DNA of 64,000 nt from an uncultured delta proteobacterium (GTDB lineage: Bacteria > Desulfobacterota > Syntrophia > Syntrophales > UBA5619). Under the pieces are notes generated by a model that was given only the letters and a program-made list of their open reading frames with translations, was not told the origin of the DNA and did no database searches. Each line of letters starts with the position of its first letter. Within the stretch, counting starts at the first letter, position 1. Positions 10,307 through 63,404 of the stretch are shown here, piece by piece. The translations under genes and the position numbers were made by a program. The stretch covers positions 194,596-258,595 of the forward strand of contig CAWFOM010000005.1 of the NCBI GenBank assembly GCA_963817385.1, written 5' to 3'.

Positions 10307-10315
10307 GGAGCTTCT

Positions 10316-10642: not shown

Positions 10643-10763
10643 GCTCCGGGATCCTCATCACATCCCCCGAACCTCAGAGCAGCCCGTTGTCCGCTGCATC
10701 GCGTGGTCTATCCCTCTTTTTTCACAATGCAGGTGGGAGGTGTTCGGAGTTACGGTGGGCCGC

Positions 10764-11336: not shown

Positions 11337-11560
11337 GAATGCCCGCCATGGGAATCCCGGCAGCACGGCATTATGTCCGTCCGGTCGATCGGCCCGGAGA
11401 TCCGCCGTACCCTGAGAATACTCATTTATTATCGGCAGAATTTCCGAAATACTTTATCCACCCCCGGTGGTTGTACCGTTAATCAAGGACATTAATAACT
11501 CTTGACAAACCTGTGGATTCCGATGCAGTCTGAAATACATAGTTAGGATGAGAATCATTC

Positions 11561-46294: not shown

Positions 46295-47176
46295 ATGAGC
46301 ATGAACGTCGGTTTCATCGGTCTGGGTATCATGGGAACCCCCATGGCCCTCAATCTCGCCCGCGGCGGCTATCCCCTGTGGGTTTGCGACCGCCGGGTCG
46401 AAGCGGCGGCGCCGCTTGTGGCCGCCGGCGCCCGAGCCTGCGCTTCTTCGGAAGAGGCGGTGCGCGCCGCCGAAGTTATCATTATCATGGTACCCGACAC
46501 CAGTGCGGTGGAGCAGGCGATCATGGGACCGAACGGGGTCCTGGCAGGGGCGAAACCCGGGGCTGCCGTCGTGGTAATGAGCACGATCTCCCCGGAGGCC
46601 GCCCGCTCCCTCGCCGCCCGGCTCTGGGAGCACGAAGTGGAGATGCTCGACGCCCCGGTATCGGGAGGGGAGGCGGAAGCCGCAGAAGGATCCCTGACGA
46701 TCATGGCGGGGGGAAAACCGGAAGTCTTCGAGCGCGTTAAGCCGCTCTTCGAGCGCCTAGGGAAGAATATCGTTCATGTCGGCCCCACCGGCGCGGGGCA
46801 GTTGGCCAAGGCCTGCAACCAGATCCTGGTTACGATGGCCATCGAAGGGGTGGCCGAGGCGTTTACCTTCGCCCGGAAAAACGGCGTGGATCCACACCGG
46901 GTGCGGGAGGCCCTCCTGGGCGGTTTTGCGGGCAGCAAAGCCCTGGAGGTCCAGGGGAAACGGATGCTGGATCGTGATTTCCAGCCGGGATTCAGGGCGC
47001 GTCTCCATCAAGAGGACCTGCGGATCATCATGGAGACAGCGCACGCGGCGGGTCTTGCCCTGCCCGGTTCCGCCCTGGCGGCCCAGCACATGAACGCCCT
47101 CATCGGAAGCGGAGACGGGGAGTTGGATTCTTCGGCCTTCGTGAACGTGATCGAACGATTGAATGAAGGCAAGTGA
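46295..47176 (+). CDS. 2-hydroxy-3-oxopropionate (tartronate semialdehyde) reductase-like HIBADH-family dehydrogenase
   Basis: 293 aa with VGFIGLGIMGTPMALNL and a GarR/GlxR-like full-length sequence. Confidence 0.88.
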   Translation: MSMNVGFIGLGIMGTPMALNLARGGYPLWVCDRRVEAAAPLVAAGARACASSEEAVRAAEVIIIMVPDTSAVEQAIMGPNGVLAGAKPGAAVVVMSTISPEAARSLAARLWEHEVEMLDAPVSGGEAEAAEGSLTIMAGGKPEVFERVKPLFERLGKNIVHVGPTGAGQLAKACNQILVTMAIEGVAEAFTFARKNGVDPHRVREALLGGFAGSKALEVQGKRMLDRDFQPGFRARLHQEDLRIIMETAHAAGLALPGSALAAQHMNALIGSGDGELDSSAFVNVIERLNEGK

Positions 47177-47186
47177 GAGAGACGAA

Positions 47187-48071
47187 ATGTTGACGAACGT
47201 CGGTTTTATCGGTTTAGGGGTGATGGGGAGACCCATGGCCCTGAACCTCATCAAAGGCGGTTATCGCCTCCGGGTGTACGGACGGCGGAAAGAGACGATG
47301 GCCCCCCTGCTGGAGGCCGGCGCCACCGCCTGCGGGTCGCCGGAAGAAGTCGCCAGGGGCTGTGACGTCGTCTTTACCATGGTGACCACCACCCAGGATG
47401 TCCTGGCGGTCGTTCTGGGTGAGCGGGGCGTTGTCGCCGGCGCCCGACGGGGCGCCATCCTGGTGGATATGGGGACCATCTCGCCCGCCGCCACGCGCAC
47501 GATCGCCGCACGGCTCGCAGAGGCGGGTATCGAGGCGCTCGACGCCCCCGTTTCGGGCGGGGGAATCGGGGCGATAAACGGAACCCTTTCCATCATGGTA
47601 GGGGGGAAACCGGAGATATTTGAGCGGGTCAAACCGCTTTTTTCCTGCATGGGGAAGAACATCGTCCATATCGGTCCGAACAGCGCCGGGCAGGTCGCCA
47701 AGGCCTGCAATCAGATCGTCATGCTCATGACCCTTCAGGGCCTGGCCGAGGCGTTCACCTTCGCGCGCAAGAACGGATTGGATCCGCAAAAGGTGTATGA
47801 GTCATTAGCCGGGGGCGCCGCCGAGTGCAGAATTCGGGAAGTGCTGGGGAAACGGATGGTGGAGAGAAATTACGTCCCCGGAATCGAAGCGCGTCTCCAC
47901 TACAAAGACATCCAGATCGTTCTCAACGAAGCCCATGCCCTCGGCATGGCGCTGCCGGGGACCGCCCTGGTAACCCAGATGTTCAACGCCCTCATCGGCC
48001 GCGGCGGCGGCAACGAAGATTCTTCACAGCTCGTGGAAGTGATCGAGACCCTATCGAAACCCCGGCAATAA
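47187..48071 (+). CDS. Second, tandem tartronate semialdehyde reductase-like dehydrogenase
   Basis: It is a paralog of the preceding gene (VGFIGLGVMGRPMALNL...). An internal segment is copied as a decayed fragment at 54375-54546. Confidence 0.88.
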   Translation: MLTNVGFIGLGVMGRPMALNLIKGGYRLRVYGRRKETMAPLLEAGATACGSPEEVARGCDVVFTMVTTTQDVLAVVLGERGVVAGARRGAILVDMGTISPAATRTIAARLAEAGIEALDAPVSGGGIGAINGTLSIMVGGKPEIFERVKPLFSCMGKNIVHIGPNSAGQVAKACNQIVMLMTLQGLAEAFTFARKNGLDPQKVYESLAGGAAECRIREVLGKRMVERNYVPGIEARLHYKDIQIVLNEAHALGMALPGTALVTQMFNALIGRGGGNEDSSQLVEVIETLSKPRQ

Positions 48072-48110
48072 AATACCCGGCCCTTGCAATCGAGGAACAT
48101 CCCTTGGGGG

Positions 48111-49308
48111 TCACTTTCTCACATTCATCATAAAGATCGGCAGGGCTGCGATCAGCATCGACGCTATCACCCAGAATGAAAGCTGATAACTATAACGGGC
48201 GATCAGGAATCCCGCCAGGATGGGGCCTGAGGCATGCCCTATGTCGAAGATCGTGCCGAAGGCGCCCATAGCGGTGCCGAAGTGCTTTTCCTTGCACAGA
48301 TCGGCGACCAAGGCGGCGCCGGACGACGTAACGACCGCTCCGCCCAGGCCGAAGAACGCCGCAGCGATCATAAGCATCGAGAAGCCGGTCAATAGCGGGA
48401 TCGCGCCGAACGATATGGCGCATATCAACAAGCCGATTGAGATAAGAGCTGTTCTTCCATACCTGTCCGACATTTTCCCCATGATCGGCTTGGAGAGGAT
48501 GGTCGTGACCACCTGCACACCCCACAAGATCCCGGCCTGAAATTCGTTGAGGCCGGCGACGGTTACCGCATAGATGGGAAGAAAAGCTTCCAAAGCCCCG
48601 ACGGTCATGTTCTGCAAGCCTTCCATGACTGATGTGATAACGATCCGTTTATCGCTCCCGACCTCTTTGATCCCTGAAACGAACCGCTTGATTGCCTCCG
48701 ATCGGCCGGTTCCCGCTTCAACGGATTTTTCATCCCTGAGCAATCCGAAGAGACAAGAGCAGCGCCATCATCCCGGTGATCCCGCTCAGGAGATAGGCAT
48801 AATGGAATTCTGTAAGGGACGGCGCGGCAGTACCAACAGCGCTGTGCAGGATGAACCCGCCGAGCGGCGCTCCGAGGAGATTCCCGATGATGGTGACGGA
48901 AGAGAACCACGACATCATCTCGCCCTTTTTATTGCCTGCAACATCCGCCACCACCGCCATGGATACAGGACCGTAAATCGCCGTTGCAAGGCCATGGATG
49001 AATCGGATGATGATGAGCGGATAATAGCTCTCTACCCAGAGATAAGCGAAGGGCATGAAGGCGAAGAAGAGCAGCCCGATGAGCATCGTCCTCTGCCTGC
49101 CGATGATATCCGAGAGAGCGCCAGCCGGCAGTTTGAAGAATATCCCCGTAACCGTTGAAATACCCACGGCAAACCCAATGGCTTCGGGTCCTGCGCCGAG
49201 ATAAAGTGCAAAGAGGGGAAGTACGGGGCTTCTCGCAAGGGCGTAAGAGAGCCTCGCGAAGAACCCGACAGTGCAGAGTGCGGTGAAGGGAGAGAGTAAT
49301 TTGTTCAT
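48111..49308 (-). pseudogene. MFS transporter interrupted by one frameshift at about 48740
   Basis: The N-terminal half is in ORF 48730-49377 (from MNKLLSPF) and the C-terminal half is in ORF 48111-48743. The two frames join at ...GMMALLLSL / LLRDEKSVE. Its ATG overlaps the chrA stop (ATGA). Confidence 0.8.
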
Positions 49309-50591
49309 ATGACGATGAATATCTTCCAGATATATCCCGCGCCAGCCGATCCAGCGATCACCGGGATCATCTCCCACTTGAAGCGTTGCATGCCGATGAA
49401 GGCGATCACGGCCGCCGCGAGGGCATACCAGTCAAATCCACCGGTGTCGGGTATGAGGGTATGATAGGTGAAGAGTACCGCGAGGTTTAACACGACCCCG
49501 ACCACCGCCGCAGTGATGGCCTTAAGGGCGGAACCCAGCTTCACATTTTTTCTGAGAGTCTCAATAAAGGGCGCAAGCAGGAAGATCATCATGAACGATG
49601 GGATGAAGGTGACCCAGGTAGCAAGCAGGCCGCCGATGGCGCCGCCAAGGGCAGGAGGCAGTCCCTGTGCATGATGGTACCCCGCAAGGTAGCCCACGAA
49701 CTGATTGACCATGATGAGCGGCCCGGGTGTGCTTTCGGCAAGACCGAGACCGTCCATCATCTGCTCGGGCATGATCCAGTGGTAATGGCTCACGGCCTGC
49801 TGACCGATATACCCCAGGACGGCGTACGCGCCGCCGAACGTGACTATCGCGGCCTTGCTGAACAGGATGCCGATGTCGATGAAGGTGTCGTTCCAGCCCC
49901 GCCAAAGTCCGATGATGATAAGGGGCAATATCCACAGAATGAGAAATACCGCGAGGACCTTGAAAAAACGTCCCCACGTGCGACGTGCGTCGACGCCGCT
50001 GTTCGGTGGGTCCGTTGGGGCTGGGGGTGTCGGCGGGGCATCACTGTTCGTCAGAGCGGTACCGAAAAAATAGCCGATCAGGCCGGCGGATAATATAATG
50101 ACCGGGAACGGCACGTTGAAAAAGTATATCCCGATGAATGCCGCGGCTGCAAGGGCAAACAGGTATCGAGTCTTCAGCGTTTTTTGACCGATACGAAGCA
50201 CCGCCTCAAGCACGATGGCCACCACGGCGGGTTTCAGCCCGTAGAAGACGGCAGTGACCATCGGCACCGCGCCGAGCGATGCATACAGCCAGGCGAGCCC
50301 CCAAAGGATGAAAATGGACGGCAGCACGAACAGACCGCCTGCCAGGATCCCGCCCCATTTTCCGTTCAGATGCCAGCCGATGTAGGTGGCGAGCTGCTGC
50401 GCCTCGGGACCGGGAAGGAGCATGCAGAAGTTAAGCGCCTGGAGGAAGTGATCCTCGGCGATCCATTTCTTTTTTTCGACCAGTTCTCTGTGCATCATCG
50501 CGATCTGGCCGGTGGGGCCGCCGAAGTTGATGAACCCGAGCTTCAGCCAGTATCGTATAGCTTCAGAAAAAGGTATGCCGCTTTGTACCAT
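49305..50591 (-). CDS. chrA: Chromate ion transporter (CHR family)
   Basis: 428 aa with LKLGFINFGGPTGQIAMMHRELVEKKKWI and a duplicated CHR domain. Confidence 0.9.
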   Translation of the reverse strand: MVQSGIPFSEAIRYWLKLGFINFGGPTGQIAMMHRELVEKKKWIAEDHFLQALNFCMLLPGPEAQQLATYIGWHLNGKWGGILAGGLFVLPSIFILWGLAWLYASLGAVPMVTAVFYGLKPAVVAIVLEAVLRIGQKTLKTRYLFALAAAAFIGIYFFNVPFPVIILSAGLIGYFFGTALTNSDAPPTPPAPTDPPNSGVDARRTWGRFFKVLAVFLILWILPLIIIGLWRGWNDTFIDIGILFSKAAIVTFGGAYAVLGYIGQQAVSHYHWIMPEQMMDGLGLAESTPGPLIMVNQFVGYLAGYHHAQGLPPALGGAIGGLLATWVTFIPSFMMIFLLAPFIETLRKNVKLGSALKAITAAVVGVVLNLAVLFTYHTLIPDTGGFDWYALAAAVIAFIGMQRFKWEMIPVIAGSAGAGYIWKIFIVI

Positions 50592-50901
50592 TATTGAATC
50601 TCTTCCGTTATTATGTTTTTGACTGATGCCGCATCTCGAATATAGCCATCCCTTTCTCCGGAAACATTTGATAAAAATCTGCTTTTGTGACGTGGAAGTA
50701 TACGATGGGCGGCCTTGTGAATCAATGAAAGAAAGAATGGCGATTACTATTTGAAATATTAGCCGGAAAGGAGATTTCTCCTGGCTGTTCGGCGCCGTGC
50801 TCTCAGCATCTTCGTCAAGATTGACGATTTGTGACCTACAGTCAATTAAGGATAGTCATCTGAAATCGAAACCTCGGCAATCATTATGATGCGATTCGAT
50901 G

Positions 50902-50946
50902 AAAAAAGGGGGGCGGCGGAGAGACCCGGAGGTCGTCCCGCCGCCT
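50902..50946 (-). terminator. Rho-independent terminator after tctA (copy 1)
   Basis: On the minus strand: GGCGGCGG...(interrupted stem)...CCGCCGCC followed by CCCCTTTTTTC. Confidence 0.7.
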
Positions 50947-50954
50947 TGGTAGGA

Positions 50955-52478
50955 TTACAGCGATTCCACGTTGAGGGTGACCTTCCCGTATCCGAGCTTC
51001 TTCATCACCGCGCGAAACACCGGCGTCAGATAGGCCAGGATGGCCGCCCCCATAAAGAGCAGCGAGATGGGACGGACAAAGAAGATGCTGAAATCACCCC
51101 CCGACAGCATCAGGGATTGGCGGAGCGAGTTTTCCGCCAGCCGCCCCAGGACCAATGCCAGGACCAAAGGCACGATCGGATACTTGAGCTTATTCATGAT
51201 ATAGCCCAGGATGCCGAAGCCGAGCATCATCCAGACGTCGAAGACGTTGTTGTTGGTCGTGAAGGCCCCGACCGTGGCGAAGATGACGATGAAGCACATG
51301 AGGATCGTATAGGGCACCCGCAAAAGCGAGACGAAGACCGGGATGAGGAAGATGTTCATCAGGACCAGGAGGAGATTCCCGATGAACTTGCTCGATATGA
51401 GGCCCCAGACCAGATCGGCGTTGTTCTGGAAGAGGAGCGGACCGGGCCTGATCCCCCACATCATGAAGCCGGCCAGCATGACCGCCGTCGTCGGGGAGCC
51501 GGGGACACCCAGGGCGAGGAGCGGAGCAAAGCCGCTGATCGAGGCGGCGTTGTTCGCCGCTTCGGGCGAGGCGATCCCCTCGATGATGCCGGTGCCGAAC
51601 TTCTCCGGATGCCTGGAGACCCGCTTCTCGGCGAGGTAGGCGAGAAACGAGGCGGTCGTGATCCCCCCGGCGGGGATGAGCCCGATGAAGAACCCGATGA
51701 CCCCGCCCCGGAAGATCGCCCAGCGCGACGCGATCCAGTCATCCCAGGTGAGGAACATATCCTTCAGCTTTATCTTCTGCTTGAGCAGTCCCCGCTCCTC
51801 CCCCTGTTCCAGGCTGTTGAACACCTCGGCCAGGCCGAAGATGCCGCAGATGATGACGATAAAGTCGATTCCTCCCATCAGTTGAGGGGTGCCGAAGGCG
51901 TAACGGGGGACGCCGCTCATAATATCGAGCCCGATGACCGAGATGAAAAGCCCCACCAGGGTGGAGATGATGATCTTCATGGGATCGCCCCCGCCGAAGA
52001 CGGTGAGCATCCCGAATGCCATCATCGCCAGGCCGAAGTATTCGGGCGGTCCGAAACGGAGCGCGAACTTGGCCAGGGCCGGGGCGAACGACATCAAGAG
52101 GACCACGGAGAGCGTTCCGGCGATCCAGGAGCCGATCGCCGCCACGGAGAGGGCCGCCCCCGCGCGTCCTTTCATGGCCATCTGATACCCGTCGAGGCAG
52201 GTCATCACCGACGAGGATTCCCCGGGGACGTTGATAAGAACCGACGTGATCGTGCCGCCGTAGGCCACGCCGTAGTAGATCCCGGCAAACAGGATGATCG
52301 CCGAGGTGGGGTTGACCGAGAAGGTCAGGGGGAGCAAGAGGGCGACCGCGGTGGGCGCCCCGATCCCCGGCAGGACCCCGACGAGCTGACCCACGATACA
52401 TCCGGCAAGGCAGTACAAGAGATTTTCCCACGTCAGGGAGATGGAAAAACCCATCATCAAATTGTTCCAGAGTTCCAT
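50955..52478 (-). CDS. tctA: Tripartite tricarboxylate transporter large permease
   Basis: 507 aa with the TctA-family N-terminus (LAGCIVGQLVGVLPGIGAPTAVALLLPLTF). Confidence 0.93.
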   Translation of the reverse strand: MELWNNLMMGFSISLTWENLLYCLAGCIVGQLVGVLPGIGAPTAVALLLPLTFSVNPTSAIILFAGIYYGVAYGGTITSVLINVPGESSSVMTCLDGYQMAMKGRAGAALSVAAIGSWIAGTLSVVLLMSFAPALAKFALRFGPPEYFGLAMMAFGMLTVFGGGDPMKIIISTLVGLFISVIGLDIMSGVPRYAFGTPQLMGGIDFIVIICGIFGLAEVFNSLEQGEERGLLKQKIKLKDMFLTWDDWIASRWAIFRGGVIGFFIGLIPAGGITTASFLAYLAEKRVSRHPEKFGTGIIEGIASPEAANNAASISGFAPLLALGVPGSPTTAVMLAGFMMWGIRPGPLLFQNNADLVWGLISSKFIGNLLLVLMNIFLIPVFVSLLRVPYTILMCFIVIFATVGAFTTNNNVFDVWMMLGFGILGYIMNKLKYPIVPLVLALVLGRLAENSLRQSLMLSGGDFSIFFVRPISLLFMGAAILAYLTPVFRAVMKKLGYGKVTLNVESL

Positions 52479-52492
52479 ACGCTAAACCCTTT

Positions 52493-52945
52493 CTACCACC
52501 CGATCATGCCCATGGGCAGCGGGATATCCAGCCACTGGGCAAAGACGATATGAATGAAGATGGCCGATATCACCGCCGTTACGCCGCACGTCATTATCTT
52601 ATGCTTCCCGATGATCCGCATGGCCGCGGCCGTGCAAAGAGCAAGCCCGACCGAGAATCCTACAAACGGGAACAGGAGAAAGGTGATGACAATCAGGGCC
52701 AGCATCTGGAATCCCAGTTTGGACCGTGGAGAAAGAAAAGCCCCCATATCGGCGCCGCCTTTCTTCCGGAAAACTTTGAGCACTTCGAAAACGCCGCCGA
52801 CCAAAACACCGATGCCGATCCAGAAGGGGAGGAATCCGGCACCCGGGCCCAAATCCGTGTAATAATGGAGCGGGAGGGAAAAAACGACGATGAAGAGACC
52901 GAGCAGCAAAACTGCCCCTGCCCCGATTAACTCAGCGCGCCACAT
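52493..52945 (-). CDS. tctB: Tripartite tricarboxylate transporter small permease
   Basis: 150 aa with 4 TM helices. It lies between tctC and tctA. Confidence 0.8.
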   Translation of the reverse strand: MWRAELIGAGAVLLLGLFIVVFSLPLHYYTDLGPGAGFLPFWIGIGVLVGGVFEVLKVFRKKGGADMGAFLSPRSKLGFQMLALIVITFLLFPFVGFSVGLALCTAAAMRIIGKHKIMTCGVTAVISAIFIHIVFAQWLDIPLPMGMIGW

Positions 52946-53188
52946 GCATTATTCTCCTTCACATTCCGATCGTCACCTACTCCCCGGACAGGACTTTCGG
53001 GGGAGGTATGTCAGGTAAATACGATTTCCGGTACTTCGCCGATATGCCCCCGGCTAAACTCCGTCCCGTCAGAGAAACACGCCGGGGGTAACGCGATCGA
53101 TCGGTCGCCACGGCAGGTAGTCCAGGCGATCATAAGCCGAACACACCTGCCGCGGCGCCATGTTTGATGTCATTGTACAACCAGAGGC

Positions 53189-54175
53189 CTATTTCAGGAT
53201 CTCCAGTTCCCGCAGGATGTCCCCAAAGAGCTTTTCATTCTTCACGACGAACTGCGAAAACTCCTTGCTCCCCAGGAAGTAAGGGCTGAGCATATACTGC
53301 TTCAGGTACTTTTCCTTCCACATTGTCGTCTCGGTCATCTTCTTCATGAGAGTCTCATAATAGGCGGCCGCTTCCGGAGAGATCTTCGGGGGGGCGGCGA
53401 TCCCGCGGAAGAAGAAAAAGATGACGTCATACCCTTTCTCCTTGAAGGTGGGAACATCCTTCAACAGGGTAAGACGGCTCTCCTTCGCCACGGCAAGGGG
53501 CCGGACCATCTTGGCGTCGTACTGCGGGACGAATTCGCTCGGATTGGCCCAGATCATGTTGACATGACCGCCCAAGAGCGCCGTGATGCACTCCCCGCCG
53601 CTGTTGAAGGGGATGTAGCGCAGCTTGATGCCCGCCGCCTTCTCGAAGAGGCGGTTGCACATCTGATCTTCCTGCCCCGTGCCCGTCCCCGCAATAGTCA
53701 GGGTCTGCTTTTTTGCCGCCGCGACGATGTCTTCGATCGTCTTATAGGGAGAGTCCGTCTTGACGACGATGAGCTGTTCATCCAGGGCCAGGTTGGCGAT
53801 CATGGTGAGATCCTTGTAGGTCGCCGACCCCTTCCCCACCACCATCGGAGCAGTGATCTGGCCGGAGATGAAGGTCACCAACATATGGTCATTGCCGGGC
53901 TGCTGGGCGACCGACGTCTGACCGATGGTACCGCTCCCGCCGGGCTGATTGACCACCAGAAACCGTTCCGGGCAGAGCTTCTCGCTCTTGATGGCGGTGT
54001 CGATGGAGCGGGCGAAGACGTCGCTGCCGCCGCCCGGCGCAAAGGGAGCGACTATGGTGATCGGTTTGGTCGGCTTGAATTCGGCGGCCAGCACCCCGGC
54101 GCTGTACACGAAGAACGCCAGCGTGACCAGCACGACTGCCTGCAACATCTTTCCTCTGTACGGGCTTGCTTTCAT
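53189..54175 (-). CDS. tctC: Tripartite tricarboxylate transporter substrate-binding protein (Bug family)
   Basis: It has a signal peptide and the PFAPGGGSDVFAR motif. The start is taken at MKASPYRG. Confidence 0.88.
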   Translation of the reverse strand: MKASPYRGKMLQAVVLVTLAFFVYSAGVLAAEFKPTKPITIVAPFAPGGGSDVFARSIDTAIKSEKLCPERFLVVNQPGGSGTIGQTSVAQQPGNDHMLVTFISGQITAPMVVGKGSATYKDLTMIANLALDEQLIVVKTDSPYKTIEDIVAAAKKQTLTIAGTGTGQEDQMCNRLFEKAAGIKLRYIPFNSGGECITALLGGHVNMIWANPSEFVPQYDAKMVRPLAVAKESRLTLLKDVPTFKEKGYDVIFFFFRGIAAPPKISPEAAAYYETLMKKMTETTMWKEKYLKQYMLSPYFLGSKEFSQFVVKNEKLFGDILRELEILK

Positions 54176-54317
54176 CTCTCTTCCTCCTTTAAAGTTAATC
54201 AAAAGAATTCCTGAACACCGTAACGTTTGAATTACCCTTATCGCGCAAATATCATAAAAACCATCTTTGCGGTAAAAAATTTTACGGCTCGAACGGAATG
54301 CACCGATGATGACATCG

Positions 54318-54368
54318 GGTGGCCGCCAGATAATCCAGCGCCGCCATCACCCCGCCTTGCTTGCGGGG
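54318..54368 (-). pseudogene. Fragment of the 3' end of a serine-glyoxylate-type aminotransferase gene
   Basis: It translates to KQGGVMAALDYLAA, against KQGGVMAAMDYLAAR at the end of the intact gene at 57881-59047. The nucleotide alignment is clear by eye. Confidence 0.7.
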
Positions 54369-54374
54369 GAGGCC

Positions 54375-54546
54375 CGCGAGGCCTTCACCTTCGCGCGCAA
54401 GAACAGATTGGATCCACGGAGAGTGTGTACAAGTCATTTCCCGGGGGGCGCCGACGAATACAAAATTCGGAAAGTGCTGGGGAAACGGATGGTGGAGCGG
54501 TACGTCCCCGGGATCGAGGCACATCTCCACTACAAAGATATCCAAT
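54375..54546 (+). pseudogene. Decayed internal fragment of the tartronate semialdehyde reductase-like gene at 47187-48071
   Basis: It aligns to about 47746-47934 (EAFTFARKN.LDP...VLGKRMVER.YVPGIEA.LHYKDIQ) with substitutions and indels. It has no start or proper end. Confidence 0.8.
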
Positions 54547-54553
54547 GCCCGAA

Positions 54554-56053
54554 CTACTTCGATAGGGCTCCGCGGAGCTTACCCCACAAAAGCGTAATCG
54601 CCGGCCAGAACAGCAGGAGGAGCCCGGCGGTCATAATCGCGCCGACAAGCCAGTTTGAAAAGAAAATACTCAATGCTCCCTGGGATCCCAATATGGCCTG
54701 GCGGAACGAGACTTCGGTCGGGTCTCCAAGCACTATGGCCAATATCAGAGGTGCCAATGGATAATCCAGCTTTTTAAAGACATAACCGATAACGCCGAAT
54801 AACAGCATGGTCCAGATGTTGAACATGGCATTGTTCACGGAGAAGGCGCCGATCGCACACACCACGACAATGACCGGGGCGATGATCGAAAAGGGGATGC
54901 GAAGGATCGCCGCGAAGAGCGGCACGGTGGAAAGAACGATGACCAGGCCGACGACGTTCGACAGATACATGCTGGCGATCAGGCCCCAGACAAAGTCCTT
55001 TTGCTCGATGAACAAGAGCGGTCCCGGCTGCAGCCCCCAGATCATCAGGCCGCCCAGCAGCACCGCCGCAGTGGCAGAGCCGGGGATGCCCAGCGCCATC
55101 ATCGGCAGGAGCGCGGCGCAGCCGGACCCGTGGGCGGCCGTCTCGGGTGCAAGCACGCCTTCCAGTTCACCGGTGCCGAATTTGTCGCCATTTTTTGAAA
55201 TTTTCTTGGCAAGGCCGTAGCTCATGAAGGATGCGGCGGTTGCGCCGCCCGGTTTGAAACCCATCCAGGCACCGATGACCATGCCTAAGAGCAGCGTCAG
55301 CCAGTACCTCGGCAACTTTTTCCATGTCTGCCACACGACCGACGGGTTAATCTTGGCGTGAACCCCTTCGAATTTAAGACCCTCTTCCATGCTGACCAGG
55401 ATTTCCCCGACGCCGAACAGGCCGATCACCACGACCAGGAAATCGACGCCCCTGAGCAGCTCGGACCAGCCAAAGGTGAGGCGGAGCGTGCCGCTGACGT
55501 TATCCATGCCGATTTGTGCCACGCCAAAGCCCAACATCAGGGAGGCGATGGTCTTGAATGGGTCCTTCCCTGTGCCGATGAAACTGGCAAAGGTAAGAAA
55601 ATAGACGGCAAAGAATTCAGGTGGGCCGAATTCCAGCGCAAAATTTGCCACCAGCGGCGCAAGAAAGGTGATCATCAAAACGGAAAAAAGGGCGCCGAAG
55701 AACGATCCGGTGAAGGAGGCAGTGAGAGCTTCACCGGCCCTCCCCTGCTGGGCCATGGGGTAGCCGTCGAACGTGGTGGCCACCGAATGGGATTCACCGG
55801 GAATATTGAACAGGATCGAGGTGATGGCCCCCGCAAACAAGGAGCCCCAATAGATGCACGACAGCATGACGATTGCCGAGGTGGGAGACATGGTAAACGT
55901 AAGCGGCAGCAGGATAGCAACGCCATTCGGCCCTCCCAGGCCCGGCAGCACGCCGACGAGGACTCCCAGTATAAGGCCGATCGCCATCATGCCGAGGTTA
56001 TACCAGCTCAGGATAACCGAAAAACCATGGAACAGATTTAACACGTTCTCCAC
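54554..56053 (-). CDS. tctA: Tripartite tricarboxylate transporter large permease, second system
   Basis: 499 aa, TctA family (GVLVGVLPGLGGPNGVAILLPLTF). Confidence 0.93.
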   Translation of the reverse strand: MENVLNLFHGFSVILSWYNLGMMAIGLILGVLVGVLPGLGGPNGVAILLPLTFTMSPTSAIVMLSCIYWGSLFAGAITSILFNIPGESHSVATTFDGYPMAQQGRAGEALTASFTGSFFGALFSVLMITFLAPLVANFALEFGPPEFFAVYFLTFASFIGTGKDPFKTIASLMLGFGVAQIGMDNVSGTLRLTFGWSELLRGVDFLVVVIGLFGVGEILVSMEEGLKFEGVHAKINPSVVWQTWKKLPRYWLTLLLGMVIGAWMGFKPGGATAASFMSYGLAKKISKNGDKFGTGELEGVLAPETAAHGSGCAALLPMMALGIPGSATAAVLLGGLMIWGLQPGPLLFIEQKDFVWGLIASMYLSNVVGLVIVLSTVPLFAAILRIPFSIIAPVIVVVCAIGAFSVNNAMFNIWTMLLFGVIGYVFKKLDYPLAPLILAIVLGDPTEVSFRQAILGSQGALSIFFSNWLVGAIMTAGLLLLFWPAITLLWGKLRGALSK

Positions 56054-56094
56054 TTGACAATCCTCCTATGCGGCAGTGCTTCAGTTGGAACAGT

Positions 56095-56610
56095 TCAATA
56101 GCCCAACAGGGATTCCAGCGGCCCCTTGGGGAGCGGAACCATGAACTGAATTTCAAACATATAAAAAAGCAGTACACTGATGCCGACGCTGACCAAGATG
56201 ACTTTAGGCCAACTGAACCGGGCCATCACCCGCATGAAACCGCCGATGAACAGGGCGGAGGCGACATAGATGCCGATGAATTGGGTGGCCAGTACATAGA
56301 AAACAGCAGGTATCAGCACGCAAAGCACCTGTTTGAAGCGGTCCCAGGAAACGAAGAGCTCATGATTGCGGTGTTTGCCGAAAAGCGCCCTGAGAAAAAC
56401 AACCACGCTTGAAATACTGATGATGGCCCCGGTGCGGAACGGAAAGTATCCCGCCTGAGGCCCTTCAGGGGCCCAACCCATCCCGATTCTCTGACCGTCC
56501 ATCATCATCACAACGCCGATGAGGAAGATGGCGACTGCCACGATCAGCTCCGCTGCCTGATACGTCAACCGGACTGAACGAGGTCGTTCCTGCGTTTGTT
56601 TCTGTTCCAT
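56095..56610 (-). CDS. tctB: Tripartite tricarboxylate transporter small permease, second system
   Basis: 171 aa with 4 TM helices. It lies between tctC and tctA. Confidence 0.8.
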   Translation of the reverse strand: MEQKQTQERPRSVRLTYQAAELIVAVAIFLIGVVMMMDGQRIGMGWAPEGPQAGYFPFRTGAIISISSVVVFLRALFGKHRNHELFVSWDRFKQVLCVLIPAVFYVLATQFIGIYVASALFIGGFMRVMARFSWPKVILVSVGISVLLFYMFEIQFMVPLPKGPLESLLGY

Positions 56611-56702
56611 GCACTACCTCCCATGACGAACGGGGAAACAGCGCGCCGGTCCGGCGGTTCGAGCTCGGTACCCGAACCCGCCGGAACCGGCGTGATTCTG
56701 AA

Positions 56703-57722
56703 CTATTTCTTGGCTGCAAACCCGGCTTCGGTCATCAGCTTCACGTGTTTTGCCATATCTTTTTTCAGGAAGTCGACAAACTCGTCTCCGGTGGCATAGT
56801 GCCTGGTGAGCGCCATGTTCTCGGTGTAGTCTTTCCACTCCGTCGTTTCGGAAACCTTTTTCAGCAGGTCGGCGTAGAACGCAACCTGTTCCTTGGTGGT
56901 TCCGGGCGGCAGGAAGAAAGCGCGCAGCATCTGGTATTGCACGTCGATTCCCTGCGACTTGCAGGTAGGGATATCGGACCATGCGATGTCGGCTACTTTT
57001 TTCTTGTAGTCCATGGGCTTGTCGGAGAAGACGCACAGGGCGCGCGCCTTGCCGGCCCGCCACTGGGCAACGTTCTCGCTGGGGTTGTTGACATTGGAAT
57101 CGATGTGTTTGCCAGCCAGTTGGATTTGAGCCTCGCCTCCGCTTTTATAGGGGATGTAGGTTATTTTCTTCCCGACAACTTTTTCGAATGCAACCGAGAT
57201 GATCTGGTCTTCCCGCTTCGAGCCGGTGCCGCCCATCTTGAAAGTCCCCTCCGGCGCCGCTTTTATGGCATTCACATAGTCCTTGGCTGTCTTGTACGGC
57301 GAATCTGAATGGACCCACAGGATAAAATCATCCAAGGCGATCATTGCCACCGGGTTGAAGTTTTCCCAGCCGAGCGGCAGATTCTGCGCGATCGGCAGGG
57401 TATAGATGAGGGAGAACGCTACCAGGAGTTTGTGGGGATCAGCCTTGGACTCTTTGACATCCATGGCGCCCTCGGCGCCGCTCGCGCCGCCCTTGTTAAG
57501 GATCATAACAGGCTGATTCATCAATTTGTACTTCAGGATGATGCCCTGGATTGTGCGCGCCATCTGGTCTGACGCACCGCCCGCACCGGCGGGAACAATG
57601 AACTCCACCGGTTTGGTGGGTTCCCAGGCGGCGGCGGGGGCTGCGGTTGCAACACTGGTCAGTGCTGCCACGACGAGCAGCAGCACTCCATACCATAATT
57701 TTCTGATCTTTCGTTTCATCAT
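56703..57722 (-). CDS. tctC: Tripartite tricarboxylate transporter substrate-binding protein, second system
   Basis: The start is taken at MMKRKIRKLWYGVLLLVVAAL, which has an AAGGAGG RBS. The upstream part of the track ORF runs through the hairpin repeat. It has the Bug-family motif PAGAGGASDQMAR. Confidence 0.88.
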   Translation of the reverse strand: MMKRKIRKLWYGVLLLVVAALTSVATAAPAAAWEPTKPVEFIVPAGAGGASDQMARTIQGIILKYKLMNQPVMILNKGGASGAEGAMDVKESKADPHKLLVAFSLIYTLPIAQNLPLGWENFNPVAMIALDDFILWVHSDSPYKTAKDYVNAIKAAPEGTFKMGGTGSKREDQIISVAFEKVVGKKITYIPYKSGGEAQIQLAGKHIDSNVNNPSENVAQWRAGKARALCVFSDKPMDYKKKVADIAWSDIPTCKSQGIDVQYQMLRAFFLPPGTTKEQVAFYADLLKKVSETTEWKDYTENMALTRHYATGDEFVDFLKKDMAKHVKLMTEAGFAAKK

Positions 57723-57778
57723 ATCCTCCTTATTAATTACGTGCATATTGCGGAACACCATGGTTCCGATTTGAAGCT

Positions 57779-57886
57779 CTCCGCAGCAAGCTGCGGAGAA
57801 TCTTCGATCCTTAAGAGGAACAAACCGGTTTTGCTCGCTTACCCCGCGGCAAGCCGCGGGGAATGCGCTCGCAGGCGGATTCAACG
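57779..57886. repeat. Two tandem hairpin repeat units (CTCCGCAG-caag-CTGCGGAG and CCCCGCGG-caag-CCGCGGGG) of the same family as 19374-19432
   Basis: 57828-57886 aligns with 19374-19432 over about 55 nt with few mismatches. It lies between the aminotransferase gene and tctC. Confidence 0.6.
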
Positions 57887-59047
57887 GGCAGCAAGGTAAT
57901 CCATCGCCGCCATCACACCACCCTGTTTATAAGGTACACCTGCGAGGGCGAAACCCATCTCGACGCCGCCGAGGGTCCCGATCAGCATCAGGTCGCTGAA
58001 TGCACCCAAATGCCCGATCCTAAAGACCCGGTCCTTCAGTTTGCCCAGGCCGCTTCCCAGGGACATGTTGAACTTGTCGAGGACCGCCGCTCGGTAGTCA
58101 TCGGCGCCTTTCTCCCCCGGCATCACCACGGTCGTCAGGACCGGGCTGTACTCATCCGGATTGAGGCAGAGGTTCTCCAGCCCCCAGGCCCGGACAGCCC
58201 GGCGTGTCGCCTCGCCGTGCCGCCTGTGGCGCGTAAAGACGTTTTCGAGCCCCTCCTCCGCAAGCAGGTGGAGGGCTTCCCGGAGACCGTAGAGCATGTT
58301 GGTCGCCGGAGACGAGGGGAAGAAGCCTCCCTTGTTGGCGTTCAGCATCTCATCCCACGCCCAGTAGGACTTGGTCAGCCGCGCGCTCTTTGACGCGGCG
58401 AGCGCCTTGGCGCTGATCGCGTTGAAGCCGAGACCCGGCGGCAGCATCAGCCCCTTCTGGGAACAGCCCACCGTGACATCCACCCCCCATTCGTCGTGGC
58501 GGTAATCGATGGAACCGAGGGAGGAGATCGTATCCACCATGAAGAGGGCCGGATGGCCGACGCGGTCGATCGCCTTGCGGATTTCGGCCACCCGGCTCGT
58601 CACGCCGGTCGAGGTCTCATTGTGCACAACCATCACGGATTTGATTGCATGACCGCGGTCCTCGGCAAGCTTCGCCTCGACCGCGGCGGGATCGACGCCG
58701 TGACGCCAGTCGCCGGGGACAAAATCAACCACCAGCCCCAGACGGAGAGCCATATTCCTCCAGAGGGTCGCAAAGTGACCCGTCTCGAACATGAGCACCT
58801 TGTCGCCGGGGGACAGGGTGTTGACCAGTCCCGCCTCCCACGCGCCGGTCCCCGATGAGGCAAAGATCACGACCGGTCCGGCCGTTTTAAAAATCTCCTT
58901 CAATCCGGCGAGCACTTCAAGACTCAGGGCCTTGAATTCCGGGCCTCGGTGATCGATCGTAGGCTTGGCCAGAGCCCGAAGCACCTGCTCGGGCACATTC
59001 GTCGGCCCGGGGATCTGCAAGAAATGACGACCGCTCGGGTATGCCAT
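57881..59047 (-). CDS. Class V aminotransferase (serine-glyoxylate / alanine-glyoxylate aminotransferase-like)
   Basis: 388 aa with HFLQIPGPTNVPEQVLRA, GCSQKGLMLPPGLGF (PLP-lysine context) and a full-length match. Confidence 0.9.
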   Translation of the reverse strand: MAYPSGRHFLQIPGPTNVPEQVLRALAKPTIDHRGPEFKALSLEVLAGLKEIFKTAGPVVIFASSGTGAWEAGLVNTLSPGDKVLMFETGHFATLWRNMALRLGLVVDFVPGDWRHGVDPAAVEAKLAEDRGHAIKSVMVVHNETSTGVTSRVAEIRKAIDRVGHPALFMVDTISSLGSIDYRHDEWGVDVTVGCSQKGLMLPPGLGFNAISAKALAASKSARLTKSYWAWDEMLNANKGGFFPSSPATNMLYGLREALHLLAEEGLENVFTRHRRHGEATRRAVRAWGLENLCLNPDEYSPVLTTVVMPGEKGADDYRAAVLDKFNMSLGSGLGKLKDRVFRIGHLGAFSDLMLIGTLGGVEMGFALAGVPYKQGGVMAAMDYLAAR

Positions 59048-59058
59048 ATCGTTCCTCC

Positions 59059-60793
59059 TTATTTTTTCTTCCAGTCAGTCCAGGGGTGATCCGTGACGGA
59101 CGGATCCGCCACGCGGTTGAAGACATTCAGAATCATCTTCGCCTTCGCCAACGGCTCCATTTTTTTGTCGGTGTGGACGATCAGCTTGGCACCGAACTTT
59201 TCATTACAGAGCTTCGAGAGAGTCTCCATCGTTTTAGGGCTCCCCGTAACCGGCAAGCAGGGCCAGAAGTAGGTCGAAACGCCCATCGCCACCAGGCTCA
59301 GGGCCTCGCCCACCTCGGCGCTCCGGTGGGCCTCGGCGAAGCAGGCCAGGATCGGCAGATCGCGGACGGCCTTCTTGGATGCCGCGGCCAGGGCGAGCAG
59401 GAATTCGGTCACACCGCCGTTCTCGCTGGTGCCCAGATCGATGACGGCGGGAAGGTTCTTGCCGGCGGCCTTGAGCAGATCGGCCACGGCCTTGCCGCAG
59501 TGCTTTTCACGCTGCTTGGGATTCAGGAGGCCGTATTTCGCCAGGCTCACGCTCGCATCTCCCTCGGAGAGGCACAGGATGCCGCCATTCAGGAATTCCT
59601 GCGCCAGGGTCACAAAGGGCAGATCCTGGGTGAACTTCACATTGTTCGTCCCCGCGAGGATCGCGATCCCCTTGATCTTTCCCTTGGCGAGGGCATCGGC
59701 GATCTTCTTGACGTCGAGATTCGCTGCGGAAAGCCCCATGAGGGCGGTCTCTTTCGCCTCGGGGATGTCCCGGGCTATCGAGCGGCGGAATTCAAACGCG
59801 TCTGACGGCCTTATCGACGATCGACTTGGCCAGGGCATCCGGGCTTTGCGCCTTGAGGACGCCCGTCGCGACAACAGATACCTGGTACTCCGCGGCGATC
59901 GCGGCCAGAGACGGGTTGACGAACTGATCACCCGTCACGATCAGATCGACGGCGCCGGTCATGAGCGGCAGCTCCTGGGAGCCGTAGCTCGTCACCGGGG
60001 CGAACGTATAGGGCGAAAGCAGCGGATCGGTGCAGACGCCTGCGACCGTCACCTTCTTCTTGGCCGCGGCGGCGGCGATCTTCGCCTTCAGGACCGGAGA
60101 GAAACGGCCGTAGAGCAGGATCGTCGCAGCACCAGTCTTCAGGACCCCCATGTTGACCTCGACCTCGGCCGGAGCGACGCCGAAGACCGCCTTTTTGAGT
60201 CCGCCCTGGAGCTTCTGGGCAAAGGCGCCCAAGAGCGCCGCCTTGAAGGCCCAGAAGAGCGTCTCCTCGACACCGGCGACGCCGCCTTCCACCTTCTGGG
60301 AGGCCTTGAACAGATCCTTGGCCACACCCTGCGGGCAGATCCCCACCTCTTCCCAGGCGGCGATGAGGGCCTTGGGGAAGGCCTTCTTCAAGGATGGAGC
60401 GCCGTCCTTCAGAAGGGCTTCGATTGAGGCAACAATCTTCTTCGTCTCGCCGACATTCTTGGGTTTCATCGCCCCGGAGGCGATCCCTTCCACAAAATCA
60501 CTGACCTGATCCAGGGAGGCCATGGTCCCCTTGAGGACCAGCTTCAGCAGGGTCTGGACGGCCAGGGTGTCCTTATCCTTCCCGCAAACGCCCAGCTTGT
60601 TGACGTCCCGGAAGGGGTGGCTGATGCAGGGCCCCTGGAGGCAATCCCGGCAGCTTAATCCCGATTCGCAGAAACCGCATTCGGGGAGCTGTCCCTCGAA
60701 ACGGTCCCACACCAGTTTCAACCCCTTGTCTGCCGCTTTCGGCAGGAAATGCTCTGCTGCGTTATCGGCAGTCTTCTTCTGGATGAACTCCAT
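59059..60793 (-). pseudogene. CooS/hybrid-cluster-protein superfamily protein (Ni-CODH catalytic subunit-like), one frameshift at about 59803
   Basis: It has the N-terminal Cys motif CGFCESGLSCRDCLQGPC...GVCGKD. The N-terminal 333-aa ORF (59792-60793) and the C-terminal ORF (59059-59931) join at ...SIVDKAVR / AFEFRRSIARDIPE after a one-base shift. Confidence 0.75.
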
Positions 60794-60869
60794 GGTAAAT
60801 CTCCTTTCTGATCCTTATCGTCCGCGACCTATTCGGTCATCGGTCAAATGGTGATTGACTCGTGTCTGA

Positions 60870-61322
60870 TTAGAATTTCTTTTTCCGATAGTCCTTCCTC
60901 TCGACGAGGGAGAGGGCTCCAGTCGGACAAACCTCCGCGCAGATCGGATAGCCCATGTTCCGGCAGCGGTCGCACTTGATCGCCACCTTCATGGACGACG
61001 AAGGGTTGATGATTCCGAAAGGACACACCATGACGCACATCCAGCAGGCTATGCAGGTCGGCTCGTTGACGTAAACCAGTCCCGTTTCCGGATCGCGACG
61101 CATGGTCCCGTTGGGGCAGGCGTCCAGACAGGGGGCGTCCTCGCAATGCCGGCATTGCAGCGCAAACGGCTGGCCCTCTACATAGACCCGGGGCACCGGA
61201 TGAGGCTCCTCGTTAATGGCCTTGGCGAGCTCCCTGGAATTGGACGCGATTTCCGTCCCGCACCAGAGTTCGCACTGATGGCATCCCGTACACTTTTGCT
61301 TGTCCACCATTAATACTTTCAC
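60870..61322 (-). CDS. CooF-like 4x[4Fe-4S] ferredoxin (GTG start inferred)
   Basis: Four Cys clusters are present: CTGCHQCELWC, CRHCEDAPCLDACP, CIACWMCVMVCP and CDRCRNMGYPICAEVCP. A GAGGAGGA RBS lies 4 nt before the GTG at 61322. The track fuses this ORF to the upstream gene only because of a frameshift. Confidence 0.8.
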   Translation of the reverse strand: MKVLMVDKQKCTGCHQCELWCGTEIASNSRELAKAINEEPHPVPRVYVEGQPFALQCRHCEDAPCLDACPNGTMRRDPETGLVYVNEPTCIACWMCVMVCPFGIINPSSSMKVAIKCDRCRNMGYPICAEVCPTGALSLVERKDYRKKKF

Positions 61323-61375
61323 ATTTTCCTCCTCACTCGAAACATGGTGCTCGTTATCGAAAACGGATCCGGGCA

Positions 61376-62685
61376 TTACAGGCCCGTATCCATCAGCTCC
61401 TTGTACTCCGGTTCGCGAAAATTTGTCGGCGTTTCTCCTGAGGATCGGCAGGAGATCCATGAAACTCAGCCGATCGCTCATCAACAGGGGAATGGAATCA
61501 GCGACGGGGATCTGCTTCTTCAGCAGCATCGACATCAGACCGGCCTTCTGGGTATGGCCGACCAGGATCGCCCCGATGAGTTTCCCATTTCTCAGGACCA
61601 GCTTCTTATAGACATCCTTCGTCCTCACCCGGATCTCCCGGAATTCGTCATCGTCGGAGGTCATCGCGCAGGATTCGGCATGGGTCACCCCCATAGAGAT
61701 GGCGGGGATCCCGATGAAGTTGCCGATGGAGTTGCGCCGGTAGGAACCGGGATACGCCGTCTTCTTGCCGGCCATGTTGAACCCGGCGATGCGGCCCTGC
61801 TCGAAGGCGCAGGGCCAGATGGCGTTGAGGAACCAGGTGTTCCGAGCGATGTCGTGGGTCTCCGCGGCATCGCCGGCGGCATAGACGTCCGGGGCGCTGG
61901 TCGCCATGAATTCATCGACCCGGATCCCCTTCATGTCGCCGATCGTGAGTTTCGCCTGGACGGCCAGATCGATCCGCCGGACGGACACCCACCGACAGGA
62001 CGACCATGTCGCAGGGAAGCTCGCGGTTGTCGGTCACGACACCCGTGACGCGCTTGTCACCCTTGAACTTCAGGGCCTTCTCCCCGGTGATTACCTCGAT
62101 CCCGAGGTCCTCGATCCGCTTGCGGACGATCTCGGCCGCCTCCGCATCGAAGACGGTCGGCATCACCTGGCCGAGCTGTTCCAGAAGGGTTGCCTTGATC
62201 CCCCGCCGGGTCAGGCTGATGCAGGCCTCGACGCCGATGGAGCCGGCGCCGATGACGACAGCCCGTTTCCCCTTCATGTTGTAGATCTTCTCCGCATCGG
62301 CCATGGTCTTCAGGGTAGAGATCCCCTCTTTGTCGATCCCCGGAATGGGCGGGACGATCGCCTTGCCGCCCGTGGCGAGCAGGAGCTTGTCGAAGGTGTA
62401 TTTCTTCCCATCGGATGCCTTGACGGTCTTGGCGGTGGGGTTCAGATCGGTGACCTTCACCCCCATGTGGGGGGTCACCTTGTTCTCTTCAAAGAAATCG
62501 GACGTCCTGAAATTGAGCAACGGCTTGGAAAGCTCCTCCGCAACGTAGTACGGCAGGAGGACTCTCGAAAAGAGGGGGGTCTCTTCATCGCTGAACAGGT
62601 CGATCTGGGAATCTTTATCCAGTGACCGGATGGATTCGACGGCACTGATCGCCGCGGCGCTCCCTCCTACAATGATGTATCGCAT
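61376..62685 (-). pseudogene. FAD/NAD(P)-dependent pyridine nucleotide-disulfide oxidoreductase (FNOR-like), two frameshifts (about 61978 and about 61420)
   Basis: It has MRYIIVGGSAAAISA and AVVIGAGSIGVE dinucleotide folds. The frames join at ...LSVGVRP / RIDLAVQAKL. The natural C-terminus (REPEYKELMDTGL-stop) is reached only after a second shift in the AAATTTTCG context. Confidence 0.8.
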
Positions 62686-62744
62686 CTTCTTCTCCTTCCT
62701 TCATTTTCTCAATGAATGGGACAATCCCGCTGACCGGCAGGATT

Positions 62745-63392
62745 TCAGTACAGGCTGTGCACCGAATAGAGGGGGAGCAGCTCCTTGAAGAGCTGAATGC
62801 CCCGGGTCACATTGTAGTTGCCGCAGGAACAGCACTCCGCCATTTCGAGGCAGCACTCCTCGATCGTTCTGCGCCCCCGTTTCACGTCGCGGACCATCTT
62901 GCGAACCAGATCCGAGGCGATCATCGCGTGACCGCACATAGTGACCGTCTGGAGGATCTCGAAATCGGGAAGCCGGCTCGTGTTGCCCCAGGTGCCGAGG
63001 GAGTATTCGAGGGAGTGAATCCGGCCCAGCCCCGCCTCCGTCATGCACTGCTGGACGATATCGGGAATGCCCGAGATGATGACCGAGATGCCGGGCCGGT
63101 CATCCTTGAGCTCCTTCAGGAGGGAGACGATCTTCTCCCGGTTGTCGAAGGTGCACTCGACGATCGTCCCGTCCGTCACGCGGCTCAGGATATCGTCCAT
63201 CGTCGTATTGTAGATGTTGCCGGTTTTCATATCGCCCAGGTTGATCGGGCCGTGCTTGTAGCAGATGCTCAGGAACTTCTTGGTCTTGGGCGCCGAACCC
63301 TTCTTGTTGACGCCGGTCGCCGGACAGCCCAGGACGACAAAATCGTTGCTCAGGCTCTCCCGGGTTCCCCTGCGGTGCAGACTGTGTGTCAT
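62745..63392 (-). CDS. Hypothetical Cys-rich protein
   Basis: 215 aa. An AAAGGAGGAG RBS is present. The C-terminal cluster is CCLEMAECCSCGNYN. I recognise no family. Confidence 0.7.
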   Translation of the reverse strand: MTHSLHRRGTRESLSNDFVVLGCPATGVNKKGSAPKTKKFLSICYKHGPINLGDMKTGNIYNTTMDDILSRVTDGTIVECTFDNREKIVSLLKELKDDRPGISVIISGIPDIVQQCMTEAGLGRIHSLEYSLGTWGNTSRLPDFEILQTVTMCGHAMIASDLVRKMVRDVKRGRRTIEECCLEMAECCSCGNYNVTRGIQLFKELLPLYSVHSLY

Positions 63393-63404
63393 GATACTCC
63401 TCCT

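Follow-up and report, generated by a model that had tools for sequence, protein, structure and literature searches.

A recombination scar of aminotransferase and dehydrogenase gene fragments between two tandem tctCBA operons of a delta proteobacterium

Homology-facilitated illegitimate recombination (HFIR), which relies on 3-10 bp of microhomology, is an established route for the addition of foreign DNA (PMC6382021, citing de Vries & Wackernagel 2002) and has also been described during foreign-DNA uptake by Prudhomme 2002 and by Meier & Wackernagel 2003 (as summarised in PMC6382021). Here we compare with it a locus of an uncultured delta proteobacterium (GTDB lineage Desulfobacterota; Syntrophia; Syntrophales; UBA5619) in which two operons of the tripartite tricarboxylate transporter (TTT) family, tct1 (50955-54175) and tct2 (54554-57713), lie in tandem on the minus strand. 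All coordinates refer to a stretch of 64,000 nt, hereafter the window (GenBank assembly GCA_963817385.1, contig CAWFOM010000005.1, positions 194,596 to 258,595 of the forward strand). The spacer between the two operons (54176-54553) contains fragments of two genes that are also present intact in the window, a class-V aminotransferase gene (AT) and a beta-hydroxyacid dehydrogenase gene (dh2). The resulting scar is real, old and shared with other lineages, and it represents an ordinary, known kind of bacterial rearrangement, not a new mechanism or system.

The likeness to HFIR lies in the join at a short GC-rich microhomology (5 nt, within the 3-10 bp range; PMC6382021), in an other end that would fall within shared homologous sequence, and in a net gain of heterologous DNA that measures several kb and leaves the resident gene truncated where the illegitimate join lies. 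The locus differs from HFIR in that the event is deduced from a natural genome and not from an experiment, and in that the donor was apparently a diverged version of the same locus and not unrelated DNA; the outcome mimics a tandem duplication. As in a tandem-duplication join, the 3′ end of AT is fused to an internal part of dh2, and the fragments have the same orientations as the intact dh2 (47163-48071) and AT (57881-59047), which stand at the outer ends. However, the two units are not duplicates of each other, because their transporters are non-orthologous: TctA, TctB and TctC of tct1 and tct2 are 43%, 27% and 34% identical in amino acids, respectively, whereas the fragments retain 81-84% nucleotide identity to the intact genes, and an MFS-chrA gene block is present in one unit only. 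A first-pass annotation of the window, made from the sequence alone, had already held that the Tct pairs are distantly related and that the scar is younger than the divergence of tct1 and tct2, and both claims stand. Remnants of genes at the boundaries of genomic islands or replaced cassettes are similar in being short start-less and stop-less pieces that mark former neighbourhoods and decay by indels with a GC-to-AT bias; by contrast, the present locus has no integrase, tRNA target or mobility genes, and its remnants derive from housekeeping-type genes of the chromosome and are found in several lineages, each time at this one locus. As for TTT (TctCBA) operons, tct1 and tct2 are canonical both in gene order (tctC-tctB-tctA) and in Pfam domains, but the scar does not code for any part of this family; the operons are only its context.

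Fragments and junctions of the spacer

The aminotransferase remnant, AT′, is located at 54321-54389 on the minus strand and comprises the last 23 codons of the gene (365-387), its stop codon having been lost. The translation of AT′, GEGLAGLPRKQGGVMAALDYLAA, aligns with AT residues 365-387 at 18 of 23 positions (tblastn, E 2e-9), and a blastn comparison of 54150-54620 with the rest of the window matched 54321-54362 to the AT 3′ end at 57887-57928 (34/42 positions, 81%; E 1e-5). The intact AT (57881-59047, minus strand; Pfam Aminotran_5) belongs to the tct2-linked type, its 3′ end clustering with that of the ATs linked to tct2 in L001, L162 and L089 (46-49 of 57 positions; related loci are denoted by L numbers). 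Outside the overlap with the dehydrogenase fragment, AT′ matches the window's intact AT at 41 of 57 positions, compared with 43-44 of 57 for the tct1-linked ATs of L082 and L083 (the L081 copy of AT′ matches these two ATs at 46-47 of 57), and it contains the AALDYLAA signature of the tct1-linked ATs. Across the 14 best-aligned codons, seven of the eight nucleotide differences between AT′ and the intact AT are synonymous, so that AT′ diverged as a working gene and not as a recent copy. The grouping with tct1-linked ATs, together with the signature, points to AT′ being the remnant of a separate, once functional, tct1-linked aminotransferase. The first-pass annotation had read this piece as a copy of roughly 15 codons of the intact gene; the assignment to the AT 3′ end was right, whereas the length and the parentage were not.

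Between AT′ and tctC1, positions 54176-54320 (minus strand) are collinear with the intact AT-tctC1 junctions of L086 and L083. This intergenic region holds the tctC1 ribosome-binding site and presumably also the tctC1 promoter. A single alignment to L086 (9797-10996) links the 3′ end of AT across the intergenic region with tctC1 and corresponds to window 54381-53189; AT′ and 54176-54320 therefore represent a native AT-tctC1 junction minus most of AT.

The dehydrogenase fragment, dh′, lies on the plus strand at 54377-54544 and corresponds to codons 196-251 of dh2. In the same blastn comparison it matches 47747-47914 within the intact dh2 (144/171 positions, 84%; E 9e-46), and indels occur at three sites (+2, +1 and -3 nt); at the protein level, 43 of 57 positions agree with dh2 residues 196-251, and dh′ has neither a start nor a stop of its own. 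Thus, its earlier description as a decayed, indel-bearing and start-less internal piece is borne out, as is, on the E values of both fragments, the broader claim that the spacer was assembled from these two genes. The intact dh2 (plus strand; Pfam NAD_binding_2 and NAD_binding_11) is the second gene of a tandem pair with dh1 (46295-47176, plus strand), to which it is 58% identical, and is the source-type of dh′. The best match to dh′ among 120 database homologs is the window's own dh2, and derivation from another, closer homolog was rejected on this ground. The 23 substitutions that separate dh′ from dh2 are distributed 5/7/11 over codon positions 1/2/3, and 10 of them are G to A. This divergence (14%) falls inside the range of orthologous dh2 genes, which differ by 11-21% over the same 168 nt. 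The two halves of dh′ have different affinities: the 5′ half is decayed and resembles the window's own dh2, and the 3′ half shows mostly synonymous differences, with L162/L163-type states at several sites. Self-comparison of 44-60 kb revealed no other repeats besides the dh1/dh2 and tctA1/tctA2 paralogy.

The two fragments meet at 54377-54381 in the pentanucleotide CGAGG, a microhomology of AT and dh2 supported by the three-way register: it occurs in both parent genes at exactly the register positions, and AT′ and dh′ overlap there. At the opposite end (54542-54553), codon 251 of dh′ is joined to the tctA2 flank 8 nt past the tctA2 stop, with a 3-nt microhomology, CCA, at 54542-54544; homology to all tct2-bearing relatives (L001, L002, L089, L162, L163, L167 and L171) resumes at 54542-54549. 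In relatives, an intrinsic terminator follows tctA2 at a distance of about 25-60 nt, with the structure GAGCCGTATCC-GTCC-GGATACGGCTC and then a T-run (L162 11118-11150, L163 11081-11110, L167 about 8100-8130). This terminator is gone in the window, and a terminator search of the spacer found none, so that tct2 and tct1 may now be co-transcribed as one unit.

The AT′|dh′ join recurs in independent assemblies. L081, which was recovered in a metagenome scan with TctC1 and is 90% identical in nucleotides across tct1, carries an identical AT′|dh′ junction, although its dh′ extends for 57 nt only, before unrelated sequence. L172, from another assembly, has the same junction, diverged to ~84% and with deletions; there, dh′ passes the end-point found in the window and reaches the equivalent of dh2 47924 at the contig end, which argues that the dh′|tctA2 join of the window is secondary and due to a later deletion. 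Indeed, the exact dh′|tctA2 join (54544/54546) is seen in the window only, and exact-protein look-ups with TctA2 and with the 100%-identical TctC1 entry P0121 yielded no independent copy. The tandem order of tct2 followed by tct1, with different spacers, was found additionally in L085, L089 and L173. Together, the shared junction and the recurrent tandem order exclude a chimeric assembly as the source of the AT′|dh′ join or of the general layout of the locus, in agreement with the first-pass annotation, which had taken the junction to be genuine. The scar is old, being common to lineages that are 10-16% apart in nucleotides.

Window 54336-54433 and L081 115-212 differ at a single one of 98 positions across the junction, whereas the adjacent intergenic sequence is ~80-83% identical. 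Selection as a general rule was rejected as an explanation, given that L172 has diverged (~84%, with deletions) over the same segment; local gene conversion or chance seems more likely than selection.

Arrangements of the locus in relatives

Related loci display tct1-only, tct2-only and tandem arrangements. Orthologs of tct1 (73-91% amino acid identity) are present in L081-L086, L172 and L173. In L083 and L086, which are collinear with window 64000-59062, the hybrid-cluster-protein (Prismane) block, an intact AT directly precedes tctC1B1A1, and the same AT-tctC1 adjacency is found in L082, L109 and L123-125. The tct2-only arrangement is represented by L162, L163, L167 and L171, taken from the contexts of dh2 homologs: here, dh2 converges on tctA2B2C2-AT, the 48-54 kb block is absent, and collinearity with the window extends over both flanks, at about 37.6-48.07 kb and 54.54-63.5 kb. 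Between dh2 and tctA2, these relatives carry nothing, a TetR region or a gene for a solute-binding protein (SBP).

Relatives of this kind, free of the block, had been anticipated in the first-pass annotation. They do exist, but two of them retain pieces of what they lack. In L162, whose genome lacks tct1, the interval from the dh2 stop to tctA2 contains a 176-nt remnant of tctA1 (10898-11073); it matches window 50898-51071, that is, the tctA1 terminator and TctA1 residues 470-507. In L163, again a genome without tct1, the dh2-tctA2 interval contains the exact AT′ 18-mer CCCCGCCTTGCTTGCGGG with matching flanks (11032-11049), which among the 167 loci was found in the window, L081 and L163 only; when the L163 intergenic region and the spacer are aligned globally, the result is ambiguous, and it is solid only for the 18-mer and its immediate flanks. 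Judging by these retained remnants, L162 and L163 formerly possessed tct1 and/or the AT′ scar, and their block-less states are secondary losses or replacements and not ancestral. The direction of change that had been proposed, namely insertion of a tct1-bearing block next to tctA2, is accordingly not upheld: insertion of tct2 between AT and tct1 is equally possible in view of L083, L086, L082 and L109, and the data support tct2 insertion with secondary losses at least as much as tct1 insertion.

The tct2 cassette itself shows a peculiar pattern of similarity. L001, a metagenome-assembled genome (MAG) recorded as 'delta proteobacterium', possesses the Prismane block, AT and tct2; its tct2 (8294-11505) is 91-93% identical to that of the window in nucleotides, as against 78% for AT and 68-77% for the right flank. 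The GC content of tct2 is 56% versus 60-63% in the flanks. High identity amid diverged flanks, together with the low GC content, points to recent horizontal spread of the cassette, although stronger constraint would also be compatible with the pattern. A more distant tct2, 76% identical in nucleotides, is carried by L002, a 'Chloroflexia' MAG.

Several other rearrangements were observed at the locus. Downstream of tctA2, L085 has a 46-nt inverted copy (4035-4080, 93% identical) of the AT-tctC2 intergenic region (window 57765-57809), and a decayed AT′ remnant lies ~145 nt upstream of its tctC1 (about 4416-4470). L170 (5251-5450), and also L169, contains a second partial dh2 spanning codons about 150-220 and 84% identical to the window's dh2; an inserted ORF and an amino-acid permease gene lie between the intact dh2 and this downstream piece, which has none of the dh′-specific substitutions and represents an independent scar of the same style. 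L172, in which the neighbourhood is rearranged so that the Prismane block lies downstream of tctA1, encodes an apparent dh1/dh2 hybrid of 142 aa (10442-10870; 155 nt of the dh1 5′ part and 195 nt of the dh2 3′ part), which may have arisen by deletion between the two paralogs of the tandem or by misassembly. In three related MAGs (L164-L166), dh2 converges on a third type of TctA, 38-39% identical to TctA1. Across the clade, the position following dh2 is thus occupied by three or more different TTT transporters.

Origin of the scar

In our best model, to which we assign a probability of about 0.55, the scar would stem from a crossover between two versions of the locus, which stacked tct1 and tct2, followed by a deletion; its order and mechanism are inferred from the fragments, microhomologies, independent junctions, arrangements and remnants observed above. 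The locus of this clade exists in alternative versions, one with tct1 after its AT and the other with tct2 after an AT of its own. The left context is shared and consists of genes for a 2-hydroxyacid dehydrogenase, an amidase, a DRL oxidoreductase, dh1 and dh2, converging on an AT-headed TctCBA operon, and the hybrid-cluster-protein block forms the shared right context. In the first step, DNA of the arrangement dh2 -> <- tct2 <- AT would recombine with the dh2 -> <- tct1 <- AT version. One crossover would be homologous, within the shared AT or right flank, and the other illegitimate, at CGAGG, where the incoming dh2 (codon 196) would be fused to the resident AT (codon 365). Such an exchange would amount to HFIR or, equivalently, to an unequal crossover of diverged alleles, and it would place both transporters in tandem, with the resident AT reduced to its last 23 codons on the native intergenic region and tctC1, next to the 3′ part of a second dh2. 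In the second step, a later deletion at CCA would eliminate the remaining portion of this dh2 copy together with the tctA2 terminator.

The crossover model would account for the ortholog-level divergence of AT′ and dh′, for a tct1-type AT′ facing a tct2-type intact AT, for the low GC content and cross-lineage similarity of tct2, and for the recurring scars, namely the 17-nt dh2-end repeat described below, the tctA1 remnant of L162 and the dh2 piece of L170. The homologous anchor that it invokes would be AT or the right flank, which are common to tct1-type and tct2-type loci. If the model is right, two 'alleles' of one neighbourhood were stacked by a single illegitimate crossover, with lineages later losing one or the other, and the scar illustrates how a bacterium can acquire an additional, distantly related uptake system and still keep its first one. 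The junction, common to the window, L081 and L172 and partly to L163, can also serve as a practical phylogenetic marker.

Several points weigh against this scenario. No contig was found that contains the full postulated recipient, dh2 -> <- tctA1B1C1 <- intact AT; it is seen as halves only, with dh2|tctA1 in the L162 remnant and AT|tctC1 in L083/L086. The remnants of L162 and L163 suggest descent from a tandem or replacement, which leaves an independent, pre-existing dh2-tct2 donor hypothetical. A later deletion has to be invoked for the end of dh′ at codon 251. Finally, dh′ is short (a 168-nt alignment) and mosaic, its 5′ half resembling the window's dh2 and its 3′ half L162/L163.

A possible but distinctly less probable alternative is an in situ tandem duplication followed by cassette replacement. 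In a tct1-only genome, the stretch bounded by dh2 codon 196 and AT codon 387 would be duplicated via CGAGG, yielding dh2-tct1-AT′|dh′-tct1-AT, and a horizontally acquired AT-tct2 would then overwrite the tct1 copy on the right (and AT). The fragments are ordered and oriented as in a tandem-duplication join, unit end to unit start, the 5′ half of dh′ is like the window's own dh2, and tct2 bears signs of recent horizontal spread; moreover, the tctA1 3′ remnant of L162 stands beside the tct2 terminator as if tct2 had overwritten tct1 inside tctA1. However, this scheme needs two rare events where one suffices, and it predicts dh′ to be a copy of the resident dh2, whereas the 3′ half of dh′ has L162/L163-type states. 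The primary spacer is no guide here, as duplication and the two-version crossover predict the same one.

The proposal of the first-pass annotation, insertion of 48.1-54.2 kb (MFS, chrA, tctCBA-1) as a single mobile block between dh2 and tctA2, is unlikely and has been largely refuted, even though L162, L163, L167 and L171 lack the block while remaining collinear on both flanks. As discussed above, the absence is secondary in L162 and L163, which keep tct1 or AT′ remnants, and in L083 and L086 tct1 directly follows an intact AT in the same right-flank context. Furthermore, the block is composite. The MFS-chrA block (48072-50864, minus strand; genes assigned with Pfam; GC 55% versus 63% in the left flank) is bordered by a 17-nt direct repeat detected in the repeat search: the left copy (48053-48069, plus strand) is the last 17 nt of dh2, and the right copy is at 50865-50881 (16/17 identical). 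The latter belongs to a third scar (50865-50897, plus strand), a displaced dh2 3′ remnant with the original 3′ untranslated region beside the tctA1 terminator; from 50865 on, the sequence aligns with the dh2 end and 3′ untranslated region of L162, which there run directly into the tctA1 terminator. MFS-chrA is absent in L162, where the tctA1 3′ end adjoins dh2, and L081, L172 and L173 have tct1 without it. The flanking repeat and the continuation of the L162 dh2 end into the tctA1 terminator mark MFS-chrA as a separate insertion with its own dh2-end scar.

A mobile-element origin was rejected. Among all substantial ORFs of 48.1-54.6 kb, Pfam searches identified no integrase, recombinase or transposase, only MFS, chromate transporter and TctA/B/C domains, and a repeat search at the block ends yielded neither terminal inverted repeats nor a target-site duplication. 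As regards a site-specific element, the 17-nt dh2-end repeat flanks MFS-chrA and the dh2/dh′ repeat flanks the larger block, dh′ being an internal piece without the dh2 3′ end. We consider it quite unlikely, slightly more so than the single-block insertion, that the 3′ part of dh2 is the preferred docking site of an unrecognised, integrase-less cassette exchange that shuffles transporter modules. Under such a scheme, tct1, tct2, the third TctA type, the SBP gene, MFS-chrA, the amino-acid permease gene and TetR may be the modules, and dh′, the 17-nt repeat and the dh2 piece of L170 may be attachment-site remnants and not accidents.

Very unlikely is a co-option of the fragments as a regulatory element or a small ORF under selection, such as the ATG-initiated ORF 54306-54764, which crosses dh′ in frame. 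The near-identity of the window and L081 across the junction, the survival of the exact AT′ 18-mer in L163 and the absence of stop codons from the dh′ frame would fit such a role, but the L172 junction has diverged and carries deletions, and in L173, L084 and L089 an SBP gene, either by itself or together with an FAD oxidase gene, stands in place of the whole scar element. A functional spacer was also rejected by direct searches: Pfam gave no match for three spacer ORFs, Rfam none at E <= 0.1 in 47.9-58.0 kb, the fold of 54300-54560 (minus strand) is no better than that of shuffled sequences (minimum free energy z-score 0.00), and an operon-strand promoter search of the spacer, like the terminator search, found none. 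ORF 54306-54764 is probably spurious, annotators should be warned that the spacer ORFs are not genes, and the spacer is best interpreted, on the sequence data at hand, as a non-functional recombination scar.

An assembly chimera of two similar loci is hardly credible: the split MFS and hybrid-cluster genes suggest long-read indel errors and the exact dh′|tctA2 join is confined to the window, but two independent assemblies (L081, L172) share the AT′|dh′ junction, and three more (L085, L089, L173) have the tct2-then-tct1 order.

Gene map and minor observations

The gene order was established from the ORF listing and Pfam scans of the window. To the left of the scar, the gene for the DRL oxidoreductase (44637-45965, plus strand) precedes dh1 and dh2, and dh2 homologs at 80-94% amino acid identity carry the JGI name 2-hydroxy-3-oxopropionate reductase. 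On the minus strand follow the MFS transporter gene, which is split into two ORFs (48111-48743 and 48730-49377), and chrA, encoding a chromate transporter (49305-50591). The tct1 operon consists of tctA1 (50955-52478), tctB1 (52493-52945) and tctC1 (53189-54175), and tct2 of tctA2 (54554-56053), tctB2 (56095-56610) and tctC2 (56703 to about 57713), all on the minus strand and identified by their Pfam TctA, TctB and TctC domains. Beyond AT on the right lies the Prismane block (59062-64000). The hybrid-cluster (Prismane) protein is also split (59059-59931 and 59792-60793, minus strand); this split and that of the MFS gene result either from genuine frameshifts in pseudogenes or from indel errors in a long-read assembly.

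The tctC1-tctB1 intergenic region (52946-53188), for which Rfam returned no match, is ~240 nt long in the window versus ~15 nt in L081, and part of it is kept in L172, where 1483-1579 matches window 53155-53058 at 75% identity.

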